A stretch of 64,000 bases of DNA from Candidatus Doudnabacteria bacterium RIFCSPHIGHO2_02_FULL_42_25 (lineage in GTDB: Bacteria; Patescibacteriota; Doudnabacteria; UBA920; O2-02-FULL-48-8). The notes beneath the pieces were generated by a model, which saw nothing but the letters and a program-made list of their open reading frames with translations, ran no database searches and was not told where the DNA came from. How positions within the stretch are numbered: the stretch's first letter is position 1; each line of letters begins with the position of its first letter. The DNA lies in the NCBI GenBank assembly GCA_001777665.1, contig MFEQ01000004.1, positions 129,331 to 193,330 on the forward strand, given 5' to 3'. The position numbers and the translations under genes were made by a program. Below are positions 4,312 to 47,140 of the stretch, piece after piece.

Positions 4312-4941
4312 CTAAATTTCTGTTTCTTGTCCTAACTGTAAAACTCGATATTTAATTCCAGTGCCTTCCAAAAATTTATCCATGGCATTATTCATGAATG
4401 CTGGAAAGAGCCAAACCCCGTCATGAACAGGAAAGCAAACCCGGGGTTTGATCTGGCGAGCATAATCTATGGCTTCAGATAATTTCAGCCACGGTCCAGA
4501 TGTTGGTACAGCCAAAATTTCCACTGGCTTATTTGGATTTGTAAAATTATCCCCCGGATAAAACAACTGGTTGTTTATAAAATATCCGGTGTTTTCAGTT
4601 TCAGGAAAATTTCCATAAACTGCACCATGTTTGGTCCCGATGCCTTCGATCAAAATTCCCTGCTCTGCTATTGATTGACCATTGCCGACGACTGATACTT
4701 TTATATCTTCCGTTAACTTCGCTACCGAAGAATTAGTTATAACTTTTGCCCGCGGATTGTTTTTGAGAATAACTTTCAGTGCATCGAGATGAAAATGATC
4801 CGGATGTTCGTGGGTTATCAAAACAATATCAATGTTAATCAAACTTTCGTAGCCTTTCGAAAACAATCCCGGATCAGTCAAAATCCGAACGCCTTTTACA
4901 TCAATCAGCAAACAACAATGCCCAAACTTTGTAATTTTCAT
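4312..4941 (-). CDS. MBL-fold metallo-hydrolase
   Basis: HxHxDH motif (ITHEHPDHF) with downstream His/Asp ligands. Confidence 0.7.
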   Translation of the reverse strand: MKITKFGHCCLLIDVKGVRILTDPGLFSKGYESLINIDIVLITHEHPDHFHLDALKVILKNNPRAKVITNSSVAKLTEDIKVSVVGNGQSIAEQGILIEGIGTKHGAVYGNFPETENTGYFINNQLFYPGDNFTNPNKPVEILAVPTSGPWLKLSEAIDYARQIKPRVCFPVHDGVWLFPAFMNNAMDKFLEGTGIKYRVLQLGQETEI

Positions 4942-4947
4942 ATGGGA

Positions 4948-5373
4948 TTATGATGGAAAATCAGAAAGTAATTGAACAGCTGGCGATCCAATTACTTTAG
5001 CTAATTTTTCGTCGGCCGTAACAAGTGTTGCGTCGGATAAGATGGCAAGAGCCACATAAATTGCGTCATAAACCGAGATGTGATTTTGATGCGCAATTCG
5101 GACTGCTTCTTCTAAAACAGTATGGATAACTTCGACCACTTGAAAGGGCAGATTTTCCAAAATTTGATGAGCATTTATAACTTCCTCAATTTCTGAACCC
5201 GACTTCATCGTCAGCACGTTGGCAACTTCATAAAACAAAAGAGGAGGTACTAGCGTTCGTACCTCTCCCTGAGCGATCTGTTCTTGTAATATTATGGCGC
5301 GATCAGTATCTTTTTCCTCGTGGAACCACTTTATCACTACTGACGCATCGAGAACAATTAGATTAGCGGGCAT
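4948..5373 (-). CDS. PIN-domain ribonuclease (VapC-like toxin)
   Basis: N-terminal LIVLDASVVIKW with conserved acidic residues of the PIN fold. A small overlapping ORF lies upstream. Confidence 0.7.
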   Translation of the reverse strand: MPANLIVLDASVVIKWFHEEKDTDRAIILQEQIAQGEVRTLVPPLLFYEVANVLTMKSGSEIEEVINAHQILENLPFQVVEVIHTVLEEAVRIAHQNHISVYDAIYVALAILSDATLVTADEKLAKVIGSPAVQLLSDFPS

Positions 5374-5530
5374 AACGTATATCTCGAAGCACTTTCACTC
5401 CGTCCCAATCGCCGGTATCTTTAGTAATCTTCTTTCTGATTTCTTGAGTTTTTTTTAAAATTTCAACAGACCGAATTTGGCGTCGGTTTTGGATACTTTC
5501 CTTGACTTGTTGCTGTTTGGATTCCTTCAT
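5366..5530 (-). CDS. Small (about 54 aa) putative antitoxin ORF overlapping the PIN gene start
   Basis: MKESKQQQVKESIQNRRQIRSVEIL... Its stop overlaps the PIN ATG by 8 nt, the usual VapBC arrangement. It is below the 60-aa cutoff of the ORF track. Confidence 0.4.
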
Positions 5531-5807: not shown

Positions 5808-6353
5808 ATGAAAGAAGAACTATTAAAAGACATATTCAAGAAAGCTCAAAGCGGTGACGACGAAGCCTTCGGGTTGATTTATGACCACTTTGCTGGTAAG
5901 ATTTATAAATTCATCTTCTTTCGGGTCAGCCATACCCAAGTAGCTGAAGATATTTTGGCTGACACTTTTATTAAAGGCTGGCAGAAATTAACGCAAGTTA
6001 ATTCCCCTGCTGCCCTCTCTGCCTGGCTATACCAAATAGCCAAAAATAATATCATCGATTACTACCGTATCAAGAAAGATTCCGTGGACCTAGCGGAAGT
6101 CGAAAACTTTCTGGAAGACGAAACTGATATTGTCGATGAAGCTAACTTAACCATTGACCAGCAGAAAATTTTAGTGCTGATCGAGGAACTACCGGAAGAA
6201 CAAAAGCAGATAATTAAATACAAATTTTTAGAAGAATTAGAAAACGAAGAGATCGCATACATCACTGGTAAAAGCGAAGGTGCGATTCGAGTCATTCAAC
6301 ACAGAGCAATCAGCAAACTGAAAGAGTTGCTAAATAAAAAATATGCCCAATAA
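5808..6353 (+). CDS. RNA polymerase sigma-70 family (ECF-type) sigma factor
   Basis: Region 2 (ADTFIKGWQKL) and region 4 helix-turn-helix (EIAYITGKSEGAIRVIQHRAISKL). Confidence 0.8.
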   Translation: MKEELLKDIFKKAQSGDDEAFGLIYDHFAGKIYKFIFFRVSHTQVAEDILADTFIKGWQKLTQVNSPAALSAWLYQIAKNNIIDYYRIKKDSVDLAEVENFLEDETDIVDEANLTIDQQKILVLIEELPEEQKQIIKYKFLEELENEEIAYITGKSEGAIRVIQHRAISKLKELLNKKYAQ

Positions 6354-6361
6354 TACAACTT

Positions 6362-7279
6362 ATGGCAATTGATGAACATCAAATTGAAAAGCTTCTAAAA
6401 TCTCTGCCGAAAAATCAGGTGCCGCTTTTTGATACTAAAAAAATCAGGACCTATGTTCTGGATCACATTGCCCTTCCTCAACCCGAACCTTCCAAGTCCT
6501 GGGGCTTTATGCCTATTCTTCGATTCGGAGCTGGAACGATTGCAGGCTTATTCATTGTCATGAGTTTGATGATGGGCACTGCGGTTGCCGCTTTAGAAAG
6601 TGTCCCTGGTTCTGCGATCTACCCTCTGAAAAGAGTGGTGGAAAACATTCAACTGAAACTCACGCCGAATGATCAGAAAACAAACCTTCAGCTGAAATTT
6701 GCTAACAACCGAATTGTAGAATTGCAAGAAGTTTTGGAACAGAAAGAGGAAGGAAAAATTTCGGACGAGCAGGCGTCCACAATTGTCGCCAATACTGTGA
6801 AAGATATTCAAAAAACCACTGCTGCTGCAGTAGCCAATTCCACTACAACCAAGTCGGCTTCCGTCGCGAATAAATTAGCTGATATTAGTAACAAACTCCT
6901 TGCCGCATCCGTTAAAAGTGAAGGACAAGTAAAAATTGAGCTGGAAAAAGCCATAGAATCAACACAGATTAGCCAAGCCGAAGCTATTGCAAATATAGAA
7001 AATGCCGGTTTAAAAGTTGAAAATTCCCCAATCGCTATTGAAGAGACTATAACAGCTTCAGGCAAGCTCACTGCGGTAACCACGGATTCAGTAAGCATCG
7101 GTACAGCCAAATTTTTACTCGATGATGAAACAAAATTTGTCGGCTTTACTCAAATTGAGTTGAAAGCTGGGTTGGTCGTTGACATTGTAGGAAAAATTGA
7201 AGATAATATTACTTACGCGACCGAAATTAAATTGGTAATCGAAATTCCAGAATCTGATACCACAGACGAAACTCAGTAA
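6362..7279 (+). CDS. Membrane-anchored DUF5667-like protein, putative anti-sigma partner
   Basis: Lies immediately after the sigma factor. Single TM segment (AGTIAGLFIVMSLMMGTAV) followed by a coiled-coil extracytoplasmic part. Confidence 0.45.
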   Translation: MAIDEHQIEKLLKSLPKNQVPLFDTKKIRTYVLDHIALPQPEPSKSWGFMPILRFGAGTIAGLFIVMSLMMGTAVAALESVPGSAIYPLKRVVENIQLKLTPNDQKTNLQLKFANNRIVELQEVLEQKEEGKISDEQASTIVANTVKDIQKTTAAAVANSTTTKSASVANKLADISNKLLAASVKSEGQVKIELEKAIESTQISQAEAIANIENAGLKVENSPIAIEETITASGKLTAVTTDSVSIGTAKFLLDDETKFVGFTQIELKAGLVVDIVGKIEDNITYATEIKLVIEIPESDTTDETQ

Positions 7280-12119: not shown

Positions 12120-13013
12120 TTATGCGCACCCCACAACAATATCCCAGTGATTTGATTCACGTGCATAAACTGCCCCAGAACTGTTCGTATATAGAGCTGC
12201 CCCATCACTAGCTCTAGCGCCACTGGGTTTGAAATTTGACGTTATATAAGTATTCACATTCGCTGTATCATCGATATCAATTTTAAAACCATTGGCATGA
12301 CTACAAGCCCCAGGTTCGTGTCCAGGTTCAGTGCCTCCTGTTACGACTATACTGCAGGAAGGACAAACAGTTTTCAGTGCTATAACTTCGTCAACGGTTG
12401 CGCGATTTATTCCCACCAGACATGTTTGTCCTGGAGGATTGGCAACCAATGTTGTTACATCAGTACAAACTTTATTTATCGGTATGCCAGCCACGCTGAA
12501 CAAATTTCTGGCTTCGAATTCAGTGAGTTTCCCAGTTACAGGAGGTGAGAAACCGCCACCGCCGCCACCGCCGCCGCTAGAAGAATCGCTAAGGTCGAAA
12601 GGTTCACAAAAATCTCCCAGGCCAGCAAGCCAACCAAGGTTGCTCAAAGTATTCACCGCGAACCCTTTTAATCCACCTTGGTTACAATAAGCTACTGTGG
12701 TGACTGCAATAAACATTAACAGTCCCATGAATAAGCCAATGCCTACTAAAACCGCAAGTGCTGTACCCCAATAAGGAGCAGTCGCCGCAATCGCACTTTT
12801 TGCAACCCCTTTTACGGCTTCCTTGCCAATCTGTTTCGCTTTGTCTTTAGCTGCATCGAGGATAGGATTACTAGGGCTGTTTTGATTTTGATTCTGCTGT
12901 TGTGAAGCCTCTTCTTCTGCTCTTCTTTCTTCCTCAAGTCGCTGTTGCTGATTGAAAGCATCTAAATCATCTTTAAACTCCTGGTCTTTATTTTCATCAA
13001 CTGCGTTGGCCAT
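12120..13013 (-). CDS. Membrane protein with Gly8 linker and Cys-rich C-terminal domain (possible cell-wall-active domain), secretion-locus associated
   Basis: TM segment ALAVLVGIGLFMGLLMFIAV, then GGGGGGGG (about 12553-12578), then a C-terminal domain with about 8 Cys. Confidence 0.45.
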   Translation of the reverse strand: MANAVDENKDQEFKDDLDAFNQQQRLEEERRAEEEASQQQNQNQNSPSNPILDAAKDKAKQIGKEAVKGVAKSAIAATAPYWGTALAVLVGIGLFMGLLMFIAVTTVAYCNQGGLKGFAVNTLSNLGWLAGLGDFCEPFDLSDSSSGGGGGGGGFSPPVTGKLTEFEARNLFSVAGIPINKVCTDVTTLVANPPGQTCLVGINRATVDEVIALKTVCPSCSIVVTGGTEPGHEPGACSHANGFKIDIDDTANVNTYITSNFKPSGARASDGAALYTNSSGAVYARESNHWDIVVGCA

Positions 13014-13016
13014 TTG

Positions 13017-14846
13017 TTATTGTCCTTGGGATTTCAGCTGCTTTTTGGCTTCTTCAATTGCCAAAGTTTGTTTCGGATCAGTGGTTATGATCTGATCTTC
13101 GATGTATGAAGCAATGATTTTTACTGCTACATGCTTCATACCGGCAAAGAAAATACCTTCTCCGACATCAGATTCCAACAGCAAATACTTTTCCCCATCA
13201 GTCAGATGGAAAGCCCGAGTAACTTCGTCGATTGCTGCTGGTGATTGCTTCAGTAATAATTGAATAGACGAGTTGTTCACGATTGGAGCACCATAGGGTG
13301 ATCGTAAAAAGTCGGAAACGTCTTGGGTGATCGTCGTCAATCCTAAATAGTATTTTCTGGCTCGTTTAGCCATGTTTGATAAAAACTGGCCAGAGTCTTC
13401 GTGCTGCATCATCCACCAGGCTTCGTCGATAACTAAAATACGTTTCTTCAAACTTGACCTGACCACATTCCAGATATAGTTCAAAATAACATAAATTGCG
13501 ATTGGGCGTAGAGTGTCTTCTAAGTCTCTGACTGAAAAGACCACACATTGATTATTTAAATTGATATTGGTGGGCTGATTGAAAATCCCAGAAAAAGTTC
13601 CAGCCGTATACTTGGTTAATCTTTGCGCTAAACTCTCCCCACCGACCATACCACCCAAAATCTCGACTAAATCCTGCATCAATGGTGGCTCTACATTGCT
13701 CAAATTTGAATTAGCACTGATATCTTTTTTGGCATAAGTTTCCCAAATCGCCCGATCCATGATCGCCTCTTCTGTGGGATCTAATTTCCCTAGCATCAAA
13801 TTCATGAGACCCAAAAGGTTAATCACTGCAGAGCGCAAAATATCTTCGTTCGACTCCCCTTCTACGCCTGGTGGCAAATCAAATGGATTAACTCTGGAAT
13901 CAGAATTTAGCGAAATATCCAGGAATGATCCGCCGACTGCGTCCGACAAATGCTTGTATTCATTTTCTGGATCGATAATGATGACATCGGTGCCAATCAT
14001 CATGGAACGCAAAATTTCCAATTTCACGGCATAACTTTTTCCACTTCCAGATTTCGCGAATACTACTGAATTGGCATTTTCCATTTGGAACCGATCAAAC
14101 AAAATCAAACCATTATTATGTCGATTGATGCCATACAATATCCCGTCGTTTGAAGTCAATTCAGAACTGACAAATGGAAAAGTCGTAGACAGTGGTTCAG
14201 TGTTCATGTTCGTAGCGACTGCCAGTTCGTCATTGCCCAGAGGCAGAGTAGAATTAAAACCTTGCTCCATTTGGAGTACTGCCGGTTTGGCTACGATTAA
14301 TTTCGAACCCAAAATAGATTCCAAGGTTGCAGTAACTTGGTCTAATTCTTTCTGGTCATTTCCATAAAGCGTAAAGTAGAGAGAAAAACGAAAGTAGCGC
14401 TCCGTCCCCTGCTGCAGACGATTCCGTAAACCCTCCACATCTTGAAACGCAGTTTCGAGCATCGGGTCACGGACATTGCCTTTTTCCTGACTCATGCGCA
14501 TCGATGATTCGAGCTGCCCAACTTTATTCCTTAATTTCTTCATAATCTCGCCAGTATCCATGGAATAAATAAACATCGACATATCCATCGGTACATCCAA
14601 ACTAATAATTGAGGACAGCCAATCGACAGAAAGAAATCTTGGGTAAGACAAAACAAAGAATGAACGGGCTAGTTTGCCGGAAACCTCCACAGAATTAGTG
14701 TTAACACGAAAGGCCGCCGGAGCAATTATATCCCGAAGTGTGTTTAACCCCTGCTTATACTCTTTTTCTTTCTGCAGAACTTCGCGCTGTAATTCCCGCT
14801 CCGGACTCGATCCTTTATTTGTCATTGGTAGTTTGAAGTTTGGCAT
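13017..14846 (-). CDS. VirB4/TrbE/TraC-family type IV secretion ATPase
   Basis: Walker A AKSGSGKS, Walker B ILVIDEAW, overall CagE/TrbE/VirB4 architecture, about 610 aa. Confidence 0.85.
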   Translation of the reverse strand: MPNFKLPMTNKGSSPERELQREVLQKEKEYKQGLNTLRDIIAPAAFRVNTNSVEVSGKLARSFFVLSYPRFLSVDWLSSIISLDVPMDMSMFIYSMDTGEIMKKLRNKVGQLESSMRMSQEKGNVRDPMLETAFQDVEGLRNRLQQGTERYFRFSLYFTLYGNDQKELDQVTATLESILGSKLIVAKPAVLQMEQGFNSTLPLGNDELAVATNMNTEPLSTTFPFVSSELTSNDGILYGINRHNNGLILFDRFQMENANSVVFAKSGSGKSYAVKLEILRSMMIGTDVIIIDPENEYKHLSDAVGGSFLDISLNSDSRVNPFDLPPGVEGESNEDILRSAVINLLGLMNLMLGKLDPTEEAIMDRAIWETYAKKDISANSNLSNVEPPLMQDLVEILGGMVGGESLAQRLTKYTAGTFSGIFNQPTNINLNNQCVVFSVRDLEDTLRPIAIYVILNYIWNVVRSSLKKRILVIDEAWWMMQHEDSGQFLSNMAKRARKYYLGLTTITQDVSDFLRSPYGAPIVNNSSIQLLLKQSPAAIDEVTRAFHLTDGEKYLLLESDVGEGIFFAGMKHVAVKIIASYIEDQIITTDPKQTLAIEEAKKQLKSQGQ

Positions 14847-14847
14847 T

Positions 14848-15540
14848 TTATTTGTTTATATCCAGTTCCTCGACACTTTTAATTTTTATTGGGGCCGCAC
14901 TATCCATATTGTAACTATTATAAACCAGCTCAATTAATTCTTCGGTGTTCAAGGCAATAGTTTTTAAACCCATAGAACCCAGGGTGTTCGTAACTTGACT
15001 GATCCGCTTCTGAAGTTCTTCGCGAGCCTTTTCAAATTCCCGACTTTTCACAGAAATCTCCCGCACCGGATTTAGTAAATTACTAATCTGTTGAAGAAAA
15101 CCAGTTTTCACTGCGGCAGTGCCGAGTGGGATAATGATGTAGAAGGTCTTGTTCATAATGCTGGCAAACTCAATAAGTTTACCGACGTATTCGATATATT
15201 CCTGCGTCTGCATACGTAACAGTTCGTTCGTCTGCTGCTGCATGATCCCATGCAAACGATCGAGATAGGTGTTGATCTCTAATTTTCTCGATTGCATCAA
15301 AATCTGAATTGGAAACTCTAATGCATTTAAGAAATTTTGATAACTTGCAATAATCGCATTTTGTTCATCAATGCTCTTCAAAGAAAAATTAGTCGAAGAA
15401 ACAACTACCACTGCGCGCAGTGAACCGTCGCGCATGATGATCGTGCCCTCTTTGATTTCGGAAATATCCAAATACGCCTGCGTGGACGCAGTTGGTTTAT
15501 TTCCAGAAAGCGAGCCTGATTGCATTTCGTTTTTAGCCAT
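14848..15540 (-). CDS. Hypothetical protein, secretion-locus associated
   Basis: ORF immediately upstream of virB4 with a 1-nt gap. No recognisable motifs. Confidence 0.4.
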   Translation of the reverse strand: MAKNEMQSGSLSGNKPTASTQAYLDISEIKEGTIIMRDGSLRAVVVVSSTNFSLKSIDEQNAIIASYQNFLNALEFPIQILMQSRKLEINTYLDRLHGIMQQQTNELLRMQTQEYIEYVGKLIEFASIMNKTFYIIIPLGTAAVKTGFLQQISNLLNPVREISVKSREFEKAREELQKRISQVTNTLGSMGLKTIALNTEELIELVYNSYNMDSAAPIKIKSVEELDINK

Positions 15541-15972
15541 CTATTCTTTGTTTAAAAGTTGCTTTTCTTCAGATGTCTTTTGATCTAACAAATAAGCTAA
15601 TTTTTTTAACCGACTTTCGCTGGCAACATCAGTTTTCGGGGCTACAGGCTCTTCTTTTTTTTCAACTTTAAACGTCATGTTGGTATTCAGTTCTTCTCGT
15701 TTGAAAACTCTGACTTGCGGCTTTAAATAAAAACTAATAAAAGCTGGAAAGTAGCTAAGCATGGGTAACCCGTTAAATTTCCCGAATGCCATAAGTAACC
15801 CGAGAAGACCTATTGGAATAGCAAAAAAGAAAAAGAACACTGACAGCTTAAGCAGAGAAAAAAACATCAAAATCAATCCACCAGTCACGAGCAGGACTAA
15901 AAATTGCTTCAATGTTAAAGGACCGATCAGTTTATCTTCAACGTCAGTGAATTGTGGGACTCCAAACTGCAT
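15541..15972 (-). CDS. Small two-TM membrane protein (VirB3/PrgI-like position)
   Basis: Two hydrophobic helices. Its position before the virB4-like gene matches VirB3-like proteins. Confidence 0.4.
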   Translation of the reverse strand: MQFGVPQFTDVEDKLIGPLTLKQFLVLLVTGGLILMFFSLLKLSVFFFFFAIPIGLLGLLMAFGKFNGLPMLSYFPAFISFYLKPQVRVFKREELNTNMTFKVEKKEEPVAPKTDVASESRLKKLAYLLDQKTSEEKQLLNKE

Positions 15973-15983
15973 AGTATGCGATC

Positions 15984-16024
15984 CGAATCTACGAATTCCA
16001 TGCGAATGACACGAATATGCGAAT
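15984..16024. promoter_or_regulatory. Five phased CGAAT copies (8-11 nt spacing) 12-52 nt upstream of the 15972 start codon
   Basis: tcCGAATc, taCGAATt, tgCGAATg, caCGAATa, tgCGAATt read directly from the sequence. Confidence 0.5.
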
Positions 16025-16129
16025 TTCTGTAGATTTTTTTGTTTCTAAATGATTAAACTTGATAATATTATAACACAAGTGGCACTGAAAGGCAAAATTT
16101 GTCCATTCTTTGTCACTGATGACAATGCG

Positions 16130-16567
16130 TTAGTGTATAAAATTCCGCAGCCATTTCGTCCAGCCTTCGCCTTCATCTTCCCAAATTGACCAAAATCGGG
16201 CAGGGGTCACAATCTTTACCCCTTTAAATTTCTCTACTTTCAATAGATGCTTATCCGACGTAACCAAAAAATCAGCTTCCGAAGCAACTGCTGATTCCAG
16301 AATTTTATTATCCTCTCTATCCTCTACAATATTTAGATGCACGGAATTCTCAATTGGCCTAACTAACTCAAAAAAATATTCTAGTTTTTTTTGAAAACCC
16401 TCATCAAGAATTTTTTTATCGGCCAGAAATTTATTTTCTCTCAAAGTTGCCTTATTCGCGTAAGCTTCTATCCGGCCTGCTATTACCAAATCTAAAATGC
16501 GGTTGGCATAATGGTAAAAATCTTCCGAGGCATCGATAAGCGCATTGGTATCTATAACAACTTTCAT
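16130..16567 (-). CDS. PIN-domain nuclease family protein
   Basis: N-terminal VVIDTNALIDA and C-terminal DFLVTSDKHLL, both PIN-type motifs. Confidence 0.6.
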   Translation of the reverse strand: MKVVIDTNALIDASEDFYHYANRILDLVIAGRIEAYANKATLRENKFLADKKILDEGFQKKLEYFFELVRPIENSVHLNIVEDREDNKILESAVASEADFLVTSDKHLLKVEKFKGVKIVTPARFWSIWEDEGEGWTKWLRNFIH

Positions 16568-17313
16568 AGAGTAACAGAATTCTTATCTTTCTTATCATCC
16601 CTATCGTCCTTATCATCCCTATCATTCTTATTGTTCTTATCATTCCTACTTAACCTATTATCCTTCAAAAATTGCTGCAACCATTTTTCTCCTTCATCAA
16701 TTTGTTTTTGTCTCTGTTTAATTTTGCTAGCTACCGTTACCTCGTCTGATTGGCTATAAGATTTTTCAACAGCACGTAGTTGTTGATCGACCAAAAAAGC
16801 AGCCTGATGAATCAAGCAAATCACACAATTCGCCGCTTTTTCCCGGTCATTTAAATAGGATAAATAAGGATAATAAGTCGGATAGGTCCGATAGGTCGGG
16901 GAGTTATCATCCTTATTGTCCCTATCATCTCTATTGTTCCTATTATCCCTATCATTCTTATCTTTCCTATCATCCTTATTATTCTTATTGTCCTTATAAT
17001 ATACAATCTTTCTCACTGCTATAGATTCGGGATGATTTTTGTCCCACTGATTCAAATTTCTCTGCCTCAAAAAGTCCTCATAATCCCCTAAAAGTTCGCC
17101 CAAGGAAAATCTTGATGCGCCAAGCAAATTAATTTTAATTTTTTCTGAGGTTTTATTTTCTGATGCCTCGACAATATTTTGTTTCCCGTCGCGAGCAGCG
17201 CCAATCATTTGGGTGGTAATTTTATGGTTGGTAATATATTTTTGACAAAATTCCACAGTGTAATCATAAACAATTGTTGCTTGCTGATAAGATTTTAAAT
17301 CTTTATAGGACAT
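16564..17313 (-). CDS. Four-helix-bundle protein (TIGR02436-like) with long low-complexity K/D/N/R extensions
   Basis: N-terminal 90 aa resemble the four-helix-bundle family (MSYKDLKSYQQA...QMIGAARDGKQNIVEASE...INLLGASRFSLGELLGDYEDF). Two K/D/N/R tracts are encoded by the 9-nt repeats. Confidence 0.5.
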   Translation of the reverse strand: MSYKDLKSYQQATIVYDYTVEFCQKYITNHKITTQMIGAARDGKQNIVEASENKTSEKIKINLLGASRFSLGELLGDYEDFLRQRNLNQWDKNHPESIAVRKIVYYKDNKNNKDDRKDKNDRDNRNNRDDRDNKDDNSPTYRTYPTYYPYLSYLNDREKAANCVICLIHQAAFLVDQQLRAVEKSYSQSDEVTVASKIKQRQKQIDEGEKWLQQFLKDNRLSRNDKNNKNDRDDKDDRDDKKDKNSVTL

Positions 17314-26318: not shown

Positions 26319-28347
26319 GGATTTGTAACAATTCCTCTGGAATGGCTTTTAAGAATCTAGAAGGAATAGAAATATTTCTGCTCCCAAATTGTTTGCGGGT
26401 CTGGGCGCATACAAGAAACAGCTGTTGCTTCGCTCTCGTAATCCCCACATAAGTCAGTCTCACTTCTTCGGCAATGTCTTTTGGATCCATCATTGATCTG
26501 GCATGTGGCAAGATCCCCTCTTCCAGTCCGACCAAAAATACTGTCTCGAATTCCAGACCTTTGGCCTGGTGCAGGGTCATCAGTGTTACTTTCGGAGAAT
26601 GTAAATCCATTTCATCTACTGATGTCATGAGCGCTACCTCTTCTAAAAATTTAGTCAGGCCTTCCTTCCAATTCATTTTACGGAAACTTCCAGCGACATT
26701 GAAAAGTTCCTGAATGTTTTCCCAACGTGTTTCTCCCTCTTCCGAACCATCACGCAGAAATGCTTCGTACCCAGTCAGCTTTAAAACTTGACGCAAGATA
26801 TCCAGTAGGTCTGCACTCTCATCTAAATTTTGAATCAAATTAACAGTTTCAAAAAAATGTTTAACAGATGGTTTGAGGTCCATCAATTTCGCTAATTCTT
26901 TCTCATCCTGTTCAATCAAAGCTTCCTTCAGCAGATCAAAACTTTTCGGCCCTATTCCCCGAGGTGGTACATTAATCACTCGTTTCAAACTTACCAAATC
27001 ATTTGGATTAATCAAAAGTCTTAGGTAACTTAAAATATCCTTGATTTCTTTGCGTTCATAGAACTTTAATCCGCCAACTATTTGATAAGGGATAGAGGCT
27101 TCAATCATAACTTCTTCCAAAACCCGGGATTGGGCATGAGTTCGATAAAGTATCGCGATATTGTTCAAACGCTGTCGATTTTTGAGTTTTGGGAGAATTT
27201 TTGACCGGGCACCTGCCCGCCACGCAAGCCAGCTTGCTGGCGTTGCAGGCGGGTGACGCATAATTCGGCCAAGAATCGTGTCGTCCGTATCCTCTATCTC
27301 ATATTGCAGCTCATTCGATTTACCATCCTGGATCTCGATAATTTTGGAAGCAACAAAATAGGCTTCTGCTAATTCATCCGGGGCAGAATAAAACATCGGA
27401 ATCATGCCTTTTTCATTTTCGGTCCACAAAGTTTTTTTGTGCTGTCTCGGACTAAGTTCAATAACTTTCTGGGCGATGGATAAAATCGGTTGAGTCGATC
27501 GGTAATTTTGCTCTAACCGAATAATTTTGGTTTCCGGATAATCTTTTTCAAAATCTAAAATATTTTGGAGGTTCGCCCCTCGAAAACCATAAATAGCTTG
27601 CGCATCGTCCCCCACCACAAAAATATTCTGATGATTGGCAACCAACATTTTCGTGAAAATATACTGGACGTGATTCGTATCCTGATATTCGTCGACCAAA
27701 ACATACTGCCAAAGATTTTGGTATTTCAAAAGCACGTCATCATGTTCTTGAAAAATTCTCACTGGTAACACCAAAAGATCTCCGAAATCGACGGCATTGT
27801 TTTTTCGAAGTTCAGTCTGATACATTTCGTAAACTTTTTTTACATTCAAATCAAAAGTAGTTTGGGTTGGTAAATCATCCGGCTCTTCTAAATTATTTTT
27901 GGCTCGATCTATAAGATGCGCAAACAATGATGGCTTAAATTTCGTCGGATCAATTCTTAAACGTAACAAAATATCTTTCAGCAAACTTTCTTGGTCATCA
28001 CTGTCATAAATGAGGAAATCCCTATCCAAACCAACTAAGGCACATTCTTGCCTTAGAATTCGGACACCTATTGAATGAAAAGTTCCCATCGTAGGGAGTT
28101 CCGATTTTCCGATCAATCCGATTATCCGAGTTTTCATTTCCCCAGCCGCCTTATTAGTAAAAGTTACAGCTAAAATACTATGTGGTTTTAACCCCAATTT
28201 TTTAATCAAATATACTATGCGCATAGTCAAAGCCCTAGTTTTACCACTGCCCGCACCAGCCAAAATTAACACCGGCCCTAGCGGCGCCTTTACAGCTTCT
28301 AATTGAGCTTGATTTAAACCGATTTGTTCAGCAGAATTTTTAGTCAT
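26305..28347 (-). CDS. uvrD: ATP-dependent DNA helicase UvrD/PcrA, carrying an in-frame GC-rich insertion
   Basis: Walker A AGAGSGKT, DEYQDT, motif IV ILYRTHAQSR, motif VI. The extra segment MRHPPATPASWLAWRAGARS is encoded by the element at 27205-27254. Confidence 0.9.
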   Translation of the reverse strand: MTKNSAEQIGLNQAQLEAVKAPLGPVLILAGAGSGKTRALTMRIVYLIKKLGLKPHSILAVTFTNKAAGEMKTRIIGLIGKSELPTMGTFHSIGVRILRQECALVGLDRDFLIYDSDDQESLLKDILLRLRIDPTKFKPSLFAHLIDRAKNNLEEPDDLPTQTTFDLNVKKVYEMYQTELRKNNAVDFGDLLVLPVRIFQEHDDVLLKYQNLWQYVLVDEYQDTNHVQYIFTKMLVANHQNIFVVGDDAQAIYGFRGANLQNILDFEKDYPETKIIRLEQNYRSTQPILSIAQKVIELSPRQHKKTLWTENEKGMIPMFYSAPDELAEAYFVASKIIEIQDGKSNELQYEIEDTDDTILGRIMRHPPATPASWLAWRAGARSKILPKLKNRQRLNNIAILYRTHAQSRVLEEVMIEASIPYQIVGGLKFYERKEIKDILSYLRLLINPNDLVSLKRVINVPPRGIGPKSFDLLKEALIEQDEKELAKLMDLKPSVKHFFETVNLIQNLDESADLLDILRQVLKLTGYEAFLRDGSEEGETRWENIQELFNVAGSFRKMNWKEGLTKFLEEVALMTSVDEMDLHSPKVTLMTLHQAKGLEFETVFLVGLEEGILPHARSMMDPKDIAEEVRLTYVGITRAKQQLFLVCAQTRKQFGSRNISIPSRFLKAIPEELLQIHEDF
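27205..27254. repeat. GC-rich palindromic element, family 1, in frame inside uvrD
   Basis: Its reverse complement shares 32 identical nt with the 24667 copy. The CDS reads through it without a stop. Confidence 0.7.
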
Positions 28348-28370
28348 GCAATGTATTATCGCACAGTATC

Positions 28371-28448
28371 TACGAACTTACGAAATTATTACGAAAATAC
28401 GAAAAAAATTATCCCTTTCGTACTTTCGTAGGCTTTCGTATTTCGTAG
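28371..28448. promoter_or_regulatory. Palindromic array of four TACGAA(A) repeats followed by four TTCGTA repeats, 24-100 nt upstream of the uvrD start
   Basis: TACGAAc tTACGAAa ttatTACGAAaaTACGAAa aaaattatccc TTTCGTAc TTTCGTAggc TTTCGTAt TTCGTAg, read directly. Confidence 0.6.
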
Positions 28449-28864
28449 ATTGAACTTGTGGATATTCCCACAAATAATCTCCTTTAAAAATAGACTTTTT
28501 TGAACTTATATACAAATGTCAGGGTTAAGAGTGTTGACGAGATAACTCAATTTTGGTAACATACGGACTATCGGTTGAAATGATAGTCGAACGAATATTA
28601 GCCCAAAAATTGATTAATTTTTCAAAAAATCCTCCCGCTAGTTTTCTGAAAAATCTGACCAAAAATTGGAGTTTATAAGGAGTTCTTATTTCCCCCCTTT
28701 CTTCCTTCAAGCGAAAGTTCTCTAAGTCCACGAAAGAAATTTCCTCTACGTGGAAATCAAACAGTAAGTTTACAATCCACCCCTTCAAGTCTTTACACTC
28801 AAGACATCTTCTTCCCCTCTCCCTTTCAGACTATTTCGCCAGATTTAGTTTTGAATTCATTGTC

Positions 28865-35725: not shown

Positions 35726-35742
35726 CTATATGATCCTAATAT

Positions 35743-35774
35743 GCGAATTAATGCTAATCAGCGAATTTGCGAAT
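35743..35774. promoter_or_regulatory. Three GCGAAT copies 18-50 nt upstream of the ileS start
   Basis: atGCGAATta ... caGCGAATttGCGAATct. Same motif family as the 28371 and 15984 arrays. Confidence 0.4.
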
Positions 35775-36170
35775 CTAATCTTTTCCCTGAGAGTTTAGAA
35801 CTCTTTTTGCTTTTAAATATTGATCTCTAAAATTTACAAGCAATCCCAATCTTTTGTTATATGCAACTAAATATCTTTTAACTTGATAATACTCTTCTCT
35901 CCCAAGAACTCTTGTACACTTAATCTCTAAAATTATTTTATCTTCGATAATGAAATCTACTTTATTTCTCCCGGGCATTTCACCGGCAAAACTCGGTGGC
36001 AACAATTTTTCTCGCTCGTATTTAATAGAAGCATTTTTAAATTTCGCTTCAATTGCATCAGCATATTGCTTCTCATTACACGATCTTCCAAGCTCGTTGT
36101 GAACCGTAAACAAAATACCCGTTATTTTATATGACAGTTCAGGATATATTAATCCAGTACTTATTGGCAT
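35775..36170 (-). CDS. GxxExxY-family protein
   Basis: ELSYKITGILFTVHNELG...GEMPGRNKVDFIIEDKIILEIKC...GLLVNF matches the GxxExxY (TIGR04256-like) pattern. Confidence 0.65.
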   Translation of the reverse strand: MPISTGLIYPELSYKITGILFTVHNELGRSCNEKQYADAIEAKFKNASIKYEREKLLPPSFAGEMPGRNKVDFIIEDKIILEIKCTRVLGREEYYQVKRYLVAYNKRLGLLVNFRDQYLKAKRVLNSQGKD

Positions 36171-36453
36171 ATTAGTAGATTAGCATATCATTCGTAGATT
36201 TGGATCATGTTAAAAATAAAAAGCAGATTCTTGCGACTCCTCGCGGAGGGTACCATCGCAATTCTCTTGCTCTCAATTATGCCTGTTACGTTAGGCTTAC
36301 GGACAGTTCTAGTTTTACCCCATCTCGAACGGATGTGAGAGATCCCTCTTAAGAGCGATTTCTCGCTGTGCTCGAAATGGTTATTAAATTTTTCTGTCAG
36401 CTTCACACCCGGCTTGATTTGCCGGTATCGCTTTCACTTATTATACCATAAAA

Positions 36454-40498: not shown

Positions 40499-40560
40499 AT
40501 TTACGAAATACGAATCAGTACGAATATACTAATGGTTTACCGATTCGTATATTAGTAACA
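40497..40560. promoter_or_regulatory. TACGAA x3 plus an inverted TTCGTA in the rpmI-rplT spacer
   Basis: tTTACGAAATACGAAtcagTACGAAtatactaatggtttaccgaTTCGTAtatt, read directly. Confidence 0.45.
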
Positions 40561-40580
40561 ATTAGTAATTAGTAAAATTT

Positions 40581-44621: not shown

Positions 44622-45962
44622 TCAAGTAACATGTGTAAACGCAATTGCATCGGGAGCAAAGTCAGAAGTTTTCGTCAGTAATCCAGAGCGAATAGCAAAT
44701 TCTCCGTATTTATTATTAATGGAATCCAGGACTGGGGTTAATGTCGCATTTCTATCGACAAAGAGAGACAACTGCTTGACTTTTGGAGATAAATATGTGA
44801 ATCCTACGGCGATATGCATAACTTCACTAGGAAACTTCCATGCATCCCAAACTTTCAATGATTGTTCATACAACTCGAATCCGGTTTCTATAAATCCCTT
44901 TATTTTTCTGGATTTATGAAAATAACTACCCCGCCCGCCATCGCAAGCCTGATTACAAACATGCCCCGTGCTCAGGCGTTGCGGGCAGGCATCAGTCAAC
45001 GATACCGATAAATAAATACCAGAAGCCATCAACCCCTCTCTCCGCATCCTGCGCGATGCTTTTTCAGCTAATCGCAGTATAACTGATTTTAATTTCTCTT
45101 TGTCAGTGGTGCGAAAGTTCAAAACCCAAGAATTCCCAAAGGATTTCTGAGATGTCTCTTTCAGATTGTCCCTCTCCCCTTGCGGGAGAGGGTGGCGCGA
45201 AGCGCCGGGTGAGGGGTAACCCAAGAACCCACCCTCATCTGTCACTAACGTGACATCTTCTCCCGTCAAGGGAGAAGATTCTATAGAATCAATCTCTAAC
45301 CCATTTACGCGCTGCCATATATCAAATCCGGGTTTGCCAAACAAACTAATTAAATTTTGCACGGGATAATCCAACAACTGCAATGGGCTGGTGATATTCA
45401 ATTTTGCCAATCTTTTTTGCCAGCCTCGCGCAATACCCCATAAATCTGAAAGCTGCTTGTGTTTATAAATTTCTGGTAACTGATCGCGCCAGATCACGGT
45501 GAGTCCATCGGGTTTTTGCATGGCTCCGGCTAATTTAGCCAGGAATTTATTTTCTCCTATCCCGATGGAGCAAGTCAACCATTCCCCTATCTCTGATTTA
45601 ATCCGTCTTTTAATTTCAGCAGCTATCAACAATCCTTTGTCATCTGGAATTTCTAAAAAAGATTCATCAATACTATAAGGCTCGACTGACGGACTATAAT
45701 CCCGAAAAATTCTATTCATCTGATCATTCACTTCTCGATATTTATCGGGATCTGACCTAGTTACGATAATATTTGGATAAATTCTTTTGGCTTTATAAAT
45801 CGAGGTCCCTGTCCCTATCCCCAGTTTCTTGGCTTCTTTCGAAGTTCCGATCAGACAACTGGTTTCATGCAAAGAATTTCCCACACCTAAAGGACGGCCT
45901 CGCCAGAGCGGATTTGCTTGCTGCTCTACTGAAGCAAAAAAAGAATTCATATCGATAAGCAT
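44622..45962 (-). CDS. dinB: Y-family DNA polymerase IV (DinB-like) with two in-frame GC-rich insertions
   Basis: MLIDMNSFFASVEQ start, Y-family palm/fingers motifs, little-finger domain. Extra segments LTDACPQRLSTGHVCNQACDGGRGSY and PSPGASRHPLPQGERDNLKE are encoded by GC-rich palindromes. The ORF track's longer N-terminal extension is judged spurious. Confidence 0.8.
   Translation of the reverse strand: MLIDMNSFFASVEQQANPLWRGRPLGVGNSLHETSCLIGTSKEAKKLGIGTGTSIYKAKRIYPNIIVTRSDPDKYREVNDQMNRIFRDYSPSVEPYSIDESFLEIPDDKGLLIAAEIKRRIKSEIGEWLTCSIGIGENKFLAKLAGAMQKPDGLTVIWRDQLPEIYKHKQLSDLWGIARGWQKRLAKLNITSPLQLLDYPVQNLISLFGKPGFDIWQRVNGLEIDSIESSPLTGEDVTLVTDEGGFLGYPSPGASRHPLPQGERDNLKETSQKSFGNSWVLNFRTTDKEKLKSVILRLAEKASRRMRREGLMASGIYLSVSLTDACPQRLSTGHVCNQACDGGRGSYFHKSRKIKGFIETGFELYEQSLKVWDAWKFPSEVMHIAVGFTYLSPKVKQLSLFVDRNATLTPVLDSINNKYGEFAIRSGLLTKTSDFAPDAIAFTHVT
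44929..44992. repeat. GC-rich palindromic element (family 1-related) in frame inside dinB
   Basis: ccccgcccgccatcgcaagcctg...caggcgttgcgggcagg. The arm matches the reverse complement of the family-1 arm. Confidence 0.6.
45170..45222. repeat. Second GC-rich hairpin element in frame inside dinB (a different family)
   Basis: ccctctcccc-ttgc-gggagaggg and ggcgcgaagcgcc hairpins, then ggtgaggggtaaccc. Confidence 0.55.
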
Positions 45963-45975
45963 GGTGCGAGGAAGT

Positions 45976-46221
45976 CTAGTCGGCATAGGATTCGAGTAGT
46001 GTCCAAGATAAATTATCCGAGTTAAATTGGAGTTTAAAGTAATTAGTGTTATCGGAAACTGCGAAAAAATAGTACTTACTCCGACCTTCGAAGTTGGACC
46101 ACGATAAATTAATCTTTTTGATAGGAATTTCCCGGCCATGCCAAAGAAACTTGAGTGGCAAAGTTTGATTCTCGCCGAATTTAACGATTACTTCGATTGG
46201 TTCATTAATTTCTTCCAACAT
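45976..46221 (-). CDS. Small protein (81 aa) 14 nt upstream of dinB, possibly YolD-like
   Basis: ORF with a convincing hydrophobic core. Its position upstream of a Y-family polymerase is as in the B. subtilis yqjX-yqjW pair (inference). Confidence 0.35.
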   Translation of the reverse strand: MLEEINEPIEVIVKFGENQTLPLKFLWHGREIPIKKINLSWSNFEGRSKYYFFAVSDNTNYFKLQFNSDNLSWTLLESYAD

Positions 46222-46256
46222 AAAAAGCGGCTTTCAGCCGCCTTAAATATTGTTTA

Positions 46257-46550
46257 CTATTTCGGGAACACTACTAAATTGCCTAATTCTTTAATGTCAT
46301 TATCAGAAATCACATCTTTCTCTCTTAAAATCTCAGCCAACTTATTGACCTTCTCATCTTCCTTGCGAAGTTTGGTAATTAAACCGCCTTCCATGTCCGC
46401 CACTTTATCTGTTAAAAAGGTCTTAGTAACCATCTGGGTTTGGATCTGATTTAAAACCGGCTCCAAATTATTTTCCCAAACTTGTCCAAAACCTCCTATA
46501 ACCTCTTCTCTTACTACTTGTTTTATTTGTTCTAAGTCTTTTTTGTCCAT
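46257..46550 (-). CDS. Hypothetical protein (97 aa)
   Basis: ORF only. Confidence 0.4.
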   Translation of the reverse strand: MDKKDLEQIKQVVREEVIGGFGQVWENNLEPVLNQIQTQMVTKTFLTDKVADMEGGLITKLRKEDEKVNKLAEILREKDVISDNDIKELGNLVVFPK

Positions 46551-46796: not shown

Positions 46797-46907
46797 TTAG
46801 TCGCCAGCGAGGGTTTCCCAAAGAATGTCAATGTCTTCCTTGCTCCAGGGCTTCGGAGTCTTCGGCTTTTCCGCGCCTTTTTTCGGACGTCCTTGCTTCT
46901 TTTCCAT
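46797..46907 (-). CDS. Small lysine-rich protein (36 aa) with GGAGG SD and its own terminator
   Basis: MEKKQGRPKKGAEKPKTPKPWSKEDIDILWETLAGD. The overlapping 66-aa ORF (46718-46918) reads through the terminator and lacks an SD. Confidence 0.35.
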   Translation of the reverse strand: MEKKQGRPKKGAEKPKTPKPWSKEDIDILWETLAGD

Positions 46908-47140
46908 ATTTCCTCCATTCGTAATTCGTTAAATTCGTAGTTTGTAGAAGATTGCCAACCATGGATCTGTTCTCGGCAATCAAAAAACCGCCTTTTCTAT
47001 AGCGGCAGTGGAAACTTCTACAAACTCGAAACTACCGCTTTAGGTGGTAAGGCGGCTAAGCAACAAACCTGAATTTGTCACATATTTCGTGTTCATAAAA
47101 AGATTATATAATGTTCTGTTTTAATGGTCAAGAGTTAGGA

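Follow-up and report, generated by a model that had tools for sequence, protein, structure and literature searches.

Eight TACGAA repeats in front of uvrD in a Candidatus Doudnabacteria genome appear to be a gene-less copy of a widespread palindromic repeat whose full-length copies carry a predicted nuclease gene

Short palindromic repeats scattered between bacterial genes are of several kinds. Miniature inverted-repeat transposable elements (MITEs), such as Correia/NEMIS, RUP and ERIC, are short, non-coding, multi-copy intergenic sequences with continuous terminal inverted repeats; they vary in presence between relatives, and a longer version with the same ends carries a transposase gene. REP/BIME elements are dispersed extragenic palindromes, 20-40-nt single GC-rich hairpins with a 5' GTAG, found between co-directional genes and probably domesticated or selfish; their cognate RAYT (TnpA-REP) gene, itself flanked by copies of the repeat, encodes a Y1 HUH transposase. 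Rickettsia palindromic elements (RPEs) are reported to sit between genes of a reduced genome and to be carried in frame inside essential protein genes (Ogata et al. 2000). The 23S rRNA intervening sequence (IVS) of Coxiella, removed by RNase III, encloses a small S23p/four-helix-bundle ORF of unknown function between inverted repeats and is regarded as selfish (PMC4990558). Arrays of 6-8-bp units in direct and inverted orientation with 7-8-bp spacing form the operators and centromeres read cooperatively by oligomeric ribbon-helix-helix proteins (omega heptads, ParG ACTC boxes, MetJ metboxes), which lie next to their regulator gene on one replicon. Integron attC sites, finally, are imperfect palindromes made of helix, unpaired spacer, helix and variable loop, conserved in design but variable in sequence.

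The locus studied here lies in a 64-kb stretch of DNA, referred to as the window, from a Candidatus Doudnabacteria genome (Patescibacteria/CPR; GCA_001779895.1, contig MFEH01000005.1). A preliminary description had pointed to four direct TACGAA(A) repeats followed by four TTCGTA repeats next to uvrD, and this observation is confirmed. The features concerned are the following.

28371-28447, no strand assigned: gene-less 4+4 palindromic element; left arm 28371-28403 with TACGAA at 28371, 28379, 28390 and 28398 (starts spaced 8, 11, 8), centre 28404-28416, right arm 28417-28447 with TTCGTA at 28417, 28425, 28435 and 28442 (spaced 8, 10, 7); complementary ATC/GAT flanks extend it to 28368-28450.
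26305-28347, minus strand: uvrD/pcrA-type helicase gene (Pfam UvrD-helicase and UvrD_C, and homologues), only the neighbour of the element.
28355-28363, minus strand: putative extended -10 of uvrD (TGcGATAAT), 7 nt from the ATG; the element starts 7 nt upstream of it and covers the -35 position.
40502-40574, no strand assigned: second full 4+4 element, filling the rpmI-rplT spacer; TACGAA x3 plus TACTAA, an 11-nt centre, then TTCGTA plus TTAGTA x3, spaced 7, 10, 8 and 8, 10, 7; it starts 3 nt after the rpmI stop and ends 6 nt before the rplT ATG.
15973-16024, no strand assigned: one-armed array of five one-mismatch units (TnCGAAT), directly upstream of the ATG of a PrgI-like gene and downstream of a conserved TGTTATAAT.
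46918-46946, no strand assigned: one-armed array of borderline cluster score, reading TACAAA-TACGAA-AACGAA-TACGAA on the minus strand and abutting the Shine-Dalgarno sequence of a 36-aa ORF (46797-46907).
35730-36208, minus strand: full-length, gene-bearing element; arms of five TRCNAAT units at 35734-35774 and 36163-36204, spaced 8, 10/11, 8, 8 from outside to inside, with termini ATGATCC...GGATCAT.
35775-36170, minus strand: GxxExxY protein gene (131 aa) enclosed by these arms, with a predicted PD-(D/E)XK nuclease fold.

The dyad at uvrD measures 77 nt, or 83 nt with its flanks, contains no ORF, and is separated from the uvrD ATG (28347) by 23 nt. Its centre is the 13-nt AAAAATTATCCCT; the ATAATTTTT given in the preliminary description is part of the reverse complement, GGGATAATTTTT. 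Seven of the eight units are followed by A and the other by C. TACGAA has the most close pairs of all 4096 hexamers in the window, and cluster scores reach 10 at uvrD and 8.5 at the second array, against at most 5.5 in 30 shuffles, although the total count of the hexamer is only mildly high (43 against 31 +/- 5). The segment folds far better than shuffled sequences, both as RNA (z = -7.7) and as DNA (z = -6.3), and is identical in four independent assemblies. The spacers are not complementary between the arms, so that the hexamers themselves are what is kept.

The interpretation offered in the preliminary description, in which the array was placed in the uvrD leader as a possible regulator-binding site, cruciform, set of iterons or RNA hairpin, is only partly supported. 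It was right in recognizing an organized dyad, in excluding a LexA or Cheo box (no GAAC-N4-GTTC palindrome is present) and in noting that the unit recurs near other genes; the combination of conserved hexamers with non-conserved spacers indeed points to protein recognition of the units rather than to a simple hairpin. However, conservation in related genomes, which had been set beforehand as a test, was not found. We examined the orthologous locus in five related species (six loci, L005 to L010, of which L005 and L006 carry the same UvrD protein), where UvrD is 72-87% identical and gene order is the same: none has TACGAA clusters anywhere in 13-22 kb. Alignment with the closest relative shows a ~75-nt insertion at uvrD and a clean 49-nt insertion at prgI. 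Two relatives (L005 and L008) carry a different palindromic array at the same place as the uvrD copy, with TAGGT/ACCTA units. A -10-like hexamer lies 9 nt from the uvrD ATG in L005, L007, L008, L009 and L010 and 7 nt from it here, and no Shine-Dalgarno sequence is present in any of the six species. From this we infer a leaderless mRNA, although a promoter scan did not call the -10; the array would then lie upstream of the transcription start and probably not in a leader. A terminator scan found no intrinsic terminator at the array, and no T run follows it, which together with its position upstream of the inferred -10 led us to reject a leader hairpin or attenuator.

The uvrD array belongs to a dispersed family. 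The pattern TACGAAN{1,5}TACGAAN{5,30}TTCGTANNTTCGTA, which demands two direct and two inverted hexamers and by our calculation should occur about 0.5 times by chance in 596 Gb, matched at least 119 loci. Of the 80 loci with a title, 46 are from Patescibacteria of many candidate phyla, 24 from Bacteroidota, 6 from "Gammaproteobacteria" metagenome-assembled genomes and 2 from Omnitrophota; such figures do not give true abundance or taxonomic frequencies, and most of the data come from metagenome-assembled genomes. In 41 copies all eight hexamers are exact, the arms are spaced 7/8, 10/11, 8 from outside inward, and the centres measure 0-35 nt. Spacers and centres differ between genomes but are nearly identical among copies within a genome, of which up to 3 can lie within 8 kb; the window itself holds two full and two partial copies plus the gene-bearing one. 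Copies sit in short spacers, mostly between co-directional genes (83 of 106), often only a few nucleotides from the stop and start codons. Their neighbors share no function: they are uvrD, rplT, a PrgI-like gene and a 36-aa ORF in the window, and diverse housekeeping genes elsewhere, some of which, by our reading of the sequences, look like genes for ribosomal proteins L15, L16 and S5. Searches of viral contigs with direct-triplet patterns returned mostly perfect tandem repeats. Rfam gave no match at the gathering threshold and only chance-level miRNA-like hairpin hits in E-value mode.

The same arm design brackets genes of the GxxExxY family (PF13366/TIGR04256). The 479-bp element in the window, 7.4 kb from the uvrD array, is inserted between the terminator of a T-box-like ileS leader and the ileS ATG, and is absent from this site in L005, L007 and L008. 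Three further GxxExxY genes, at loci L246, L276 and L190 of those retrieved, lie between inverted arrays, two of them with different units (GCGGAT and CGCAAAG). We then retrieved 80 metagenomic loci encoding proteins 52-73% identical to that of the window. In the 62 distinct ones, upstream flanks hold 2.98 forward units per 100 nt (reverse 0.10) and downstream flanks 3.05 reverse units (forward 0.27), against a background of 0.29. Arm spacing is 8-11-8/9-7, and the units include TGCGAAT, TACGAAT, TGCTAAT, TACTAAT, TGCCAAT and similar sequences; one locus, L372, has seven TACGAAT units. Unit composition tracks protein distance (Mantel r = 0.33, 0 of 2000 permutations). The gene is co-directional with its upstream neighbor in 46 of 60 cases and with its downstream neighbor in 49 of 56; the upstream stop codon is often the TGA/TAA fused to the first unit, and the downstream ATG follows the last unit directly. 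There is no room for an own promoter. In complete sequences from isolates, distant homologues in Bacteroides finegoldii and Bernardetia show the same design with CACAGAG(G)A units, whereas Treponema has a simple 12-bp inverted repeat and Persicobacter showed nothing obvious. No GxxExxY relatives were found in viral contigs.

The protein matches Pfam PF13366 and TIGR04256 (3.9e-26). Its AF2 model is confident (pLDDT 89.8) and has a PD-(D/E)XK core in which D72, E82 and K84 are invariant in the alignment; its nearest solved folds in a Foldseek search are Cas4, lambda-exonuclease-like nucleases and Hjc, at TM about 0.5. Judged from sequence and model alone, the nuclease looks active. There was no sequence match in the PDB, no defence-system match and only a PHROG of unknown function. 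The family has 6,114 clusters at 50% identity, and a survey of PD-(D/E)XK proteins lists PF13366 as "Unknown", with multiple transfers (PMC3424549).

We consider it likely that the uvrD array is a gene-less, non-autonomous, MITE-like copy of a selfish element, each arm of which holds four (in full copies five) TRCNAAW heptamers in fixed short-long-short spacing, the two arms being inverted around a variable centre that in full-length members is a ~125-aa GxxExxY gene. What the analysis establishes is the existence of the family in many genomes of Patescibacteria and Bacteroidota, the architecture shared by gene-less and gene-bearing copies, the status of the uvrD, prgI and ileS copies as insertions relative to close relatives, and the location of copies in short spacers right next to start codons. 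The rest is inference: that the units are binding sites for an oligomeric protein, most likely the element's own nuclease acting in trans; that this protein binds or cuts the units and pairs or cuts the arms, as duplex or as an interrupted hairpin or cruciform, to move or copy the element; and that at uvrD the element merely replaced the -35 region of a promoter with an extended -10, any effect on uvrD expression being a by-product rather than a dedicated regulatory design. Binding by the GxxExxY protein, which has no separate DNA-binding domain, is pure inference, resting only on co-location, co-variation of unit composition with protein distance and an intact catalytic motif. That units are selected as such is suggested by the mismatches in gene-less copies, which concentrate at unit position 4 (18 of 37), the same free position as in gene-bearing arms; by the lack of mirrored covariation between arms (0.71 against 0.68-0.78 at other registers; a stricter anchored version had only 4 usable elements); and by the rpmI-rplT copy, which keeps unit variants common in gene-bearing arms but no longer folds (z = -1.15). 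On the other hand, outer and inner spacers and the 6-nt flanks are complementary more often than shuffled partners (about 0.5 against 0.33) while the middle spacer is not (0.26 against 0.34), suggesting that a folded state, possibly of RNA, also matters; the arms would form helix, internal loop, helix. We therefore favor a protein that reads the units on duplex or folded DNA. A further complication is that a second, unrelated family of small proteins (four-helix-bundle/23S rRNA IVS type) is bracketed, in the window and in L008, by similar arrays with other units, so that the arms might be a carrier and the ORFs cargo, with mobility supplied by something else. Apart from three GxxExxY genes, no cargo-carrying TACGAA copy was adjacent to gene-less copies in the 119 loci, and when these were searched for arms separated by cargo, almost all apparently solo arms had a degenerate partner nearby. 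No target-site duplication or excision footprint could be defined: the flanks at uvrD are complementary, not direct repeats, and the sequence next to the insertion has diverged from L009.

Other readings appear less satisfactory. An operator array for a host transcription factor, for example an SOS-like or ribbon-helix-helix regulator serving a small regulon, would account for the conserved hexamers, the two-fold symmetry, the overlap with the -35 position, the proximity of arrays to four start codons and a spacing of 7-11 bp resembling that of omega, ParG and MetJ operators. It is nevertheless very unlikely, as the array is absent at uvrD from all five related species and at prgI from the closest one, the same element occurs in over 100 loci from distant phyla next to unrelated genes, copies within a genome share centre and spacer sequences as repeats do and operators do not, and the arms bracket a nuclease gene. 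A Y-family polymerase operon lies near one array, but this array precedes the separate 36-aa ORF, which is bounded by a terminator, and an SOS-like regulon of uvrD and the polymerase was rejected on this ground and for lack of conservation. The only regulator gene found in the window is an ECF sigma factor, in a sigma/anti-sigma pair at 5808-7279; the distances between GAAA and CGTA elements are 18/26/34 nt, not about 21-23 nt, and the region upstream of the sigma gene has no such motif. An ECF-sigma promoter made of these elements was rejected.

A role exerted mainly at the RNA level is unlikely, but it is compatible with mobility at the DNA level and does not exclude the favored explanation. 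In this view, the transcribed arms would pair into a long interrupted stem of helix, 4-5-nt internal loop, helix and variable loop or ORF, which would be processed, for example by RNase III as in 23S rRNA intervening sequences, or would keep neighboring stop and start codons coupled, making the insertion harmless, with an RNA-binding partner accounting for unit conservation. The strong predicted fold, the co-directional neighbors, the tight fit to stop and start codons, the non-complementary middle spacer between partly complementary ones and a design like that of the Coxiella IVS speak for it; yet the uvrD copy has eight perfect units although it lies upstream of the inferred transcription start, helices are conserved in sequence and not by covariation, the rpmI-rplT copy has lost its fold, and no Rfam family matches. 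The possibility of a folded single-strand recombination site analogous to attC, used by a site-specific recombinase to capture or move gene cassettes, is remote. The geometry matches, with two short helices separated by an unpaired spacer plus a variable terminal structure of 0-35 nt or more, and several copies lie between small co-directional ORFs in some loci, but there is no GTTRRRY/RYYYAAC core, no integrase was seen next to copies in the loci read, the associated gene is a predicted PD-(D/E)XK nuclease, and the neighbors are housekeeping genes in conserved order, which also led us to reject a gene-cassette arrangement.

Full-text literature searches by motif, family names and element type, which did not cover subscription literature, found no description of the element; the TACGAA/TTCGTA hits are loxP sequences. 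Dispersed palindromic repeats with a cognate gene are known, but the present one departs from each of the systems considered above. It resembles MITEs in its size of about 80 bp, its inverted arms, its intergenic multi-copy distribution, its empty sites in relatives and the existence of a longer gene-carrying version, but its arms are arrays of 4-5 short direct repeats with fixed spacing, and the associated gene encodes a minimal predicted nuclease and not a known transposase, transposition itself being inferred. As with REP/RAYT, the candidate partner gene is flanked by the repeat, but the repeat is AT-rich, with 8-10 units, and the gene belongs to PF13366. RPEs are not known to have an associated gene or a unit-array architecture and occur in a different phylum; PF13366 domains, however, sit inside RecG, GatB, FolD and glycosyltransferase ORFs, and a related array type lies inside the four-helix-bundle gene of the window. 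The rRNA intervening sequences share the enclosed small ORF, while the present copies lie in promoters, operon spacers and ORFs. Ribbon-helix-helix operators offer the best analogy for how the units might be bound, but they are not dispersed repeats, and no such regulator gene was found in the window.

It is tempting to speculate, though this remains a tentative and less likely than not proposition, that GxxExxY genes and their heptamer-array arms are a previously unrecognized class of selfish element. A minimal PD-(D/E)XK nuclease would read arrays of 4-5 short units on two inverted arms, and the element would land precisely at start codons or stop-start junctions of operons, and even in frame inside essential genes (RecG, GatB, FolD), being made harmless by its arms through restored translational coupling or an RNA-level cut-and-rejoin resembling archaeal bulge-helix-bulge splicing. 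The eightfold TACGAA arrays would then be its vacant or non-autonomous form.

These findings assign a concrete genomic behavior to a large protein family with no known function and identify a stereotyped repeat that punctuates the small genomes of Patescibacteria and many Bacteroidota, including ribosomal-protein operons and promoters. In annotation, such arrays should not be read as operators, riboswitches or leader hairpins of the adjacent gene. The 131-aa predicted nuclease and its putative 77-bp substrate form a testable pair that may reveal a new way of moving DNA or of neutralizing insertions. For the biology of the CPR, they show that promoters such as that of uvrD are being remodeled by insertions between close species.

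A conserved promoter (TTGACG-17-TGgTAACAT) and a conserved leader of ~300 nt lie upstream of the LysM-M23 peptidase gene (window 28534-28864, + strand) and are shared by several relatives, with equivalents in L005, L007, L009 and L010 (orthologous loci from related Doudnabacteria). An Rfam search gave no match for this leader, which may be an undescribed cis-regulatory RNA. Between the peptidase gene and uvrD, a DNA stretch at window 28455-28466 (CTTGTGGATATT; reverse complement AATATCCACAAG) is conserved in all six species and matches the DnaA-box consensus TTATCCACA at 8 of 9 positions. In the window and in L009 this stretch is part of an inverted repeat, TTGTGG...CCACAA. At the same place upstream of the uvrD -10 box, two relatives carry a different palindromic array (L005 9920-9995 and L008 9930-9995) made of AGGT/TAGG units, a centre, and then four ACCTA heptads. 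The site appears to attract such elements. A type IV secretion/conjugation-like cluster (PrgI, TraC-like, VirB4-like ATPase, TrbL_3, PIN; window 12120-25395, minus strand, and relatives) is conserved next to uvrD-ksgA in all the Doudnabacteria loci read.

Inverted arrays are also found around genes of the four-helix-bundle (23S rRNA IVS-type) family. In the window, a second kind of inverted array, with units ATAGGA/TAAGGA and TCCTAT, occupies positions 16590-16660, 16854-16990 and 17318-17625 and flanks the four-helix-bundle gene at 16564-17313; one copy lies in frame inside the gene, giving the low-complexity stretch KDNKNNKDDRKDKNDRDNRNNRDD. In the relative represented by L008 (19990-20560), a four-helix-bundle (PF05635) gene is bracketed by GGGAAT/AGGAAT units upstream and ATTCCT/ATTCTA units downstream, and the ATG of the next gene follows directly. 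The GxxExxY domain occurs in frame in the middle of long housekeeping proteins, namely P0299, P0388 (RecG), P0343 (GatB), P0262 (FolD), and P0285 and P0292 (glycosyltransferases), where it is flanked by short repetitive linkers that look like translated arms. The GatB protein also contains what looks like a translated gene-less array (SRMNSNESRIFEKDSIKLEKDSR). No Hint/intein domain was reported.

The leader upstream of ileS (window 36209-36453, minus strand) has a GGTACC T-box-like motif and a terminator hairpin with a U run, conserved in relatives. Rfam reported no T-box match even at E <= 1. The GxxExxY element sits between this leader and the ileS ATG. Elsewhere in the window, a stand-alone 36-aa ORF (46797-46907, minus strand; MEKKQGRPKKGAEKPKTPKPWSKEDIDILWETLAGD) has an AT-hook-like GRPKK, a strong Shine-Dalgarno sequence and its own terminator; it was called as a gene in public annotation but gave no family match. 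At 44622-46550 (minus strand), a 97-aa coiled-coil ORF, a DUF6504 protein and a 505-aa Y-family (IMS) polymerase are arranged in a row, an organization resembling an ImuB-type mutagenesis cassette without an adjacent DnaE2.

High-GC viral contigs (viral loci L018, L025, L071, L127, L134 and others; also L024 and L132) share a non-tandem array of GTACGAAA units, in three direct plus inverted copies with variable spacers, which looks like a phage operator or iteron set with a similar unit. In L189, a locus carrying copies of the 4+4 element at 4534-4623 and 5316-5405, these copies are flanked, about 20 nt out, by further inverted repeats that differ between copies (ccgtgctgcac/gtgcagcacgg; cctcacataag/cttatgtgagg), and it looks as if the element had landed in the loop of pre-existing hairpins. 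Finally, comparison of loci L323 and L328 with L325 showed that otherwise identical loci differ by a gene-less array nested in the right arm of a gene-bearing element, a presence/absence polymorphism within one population.
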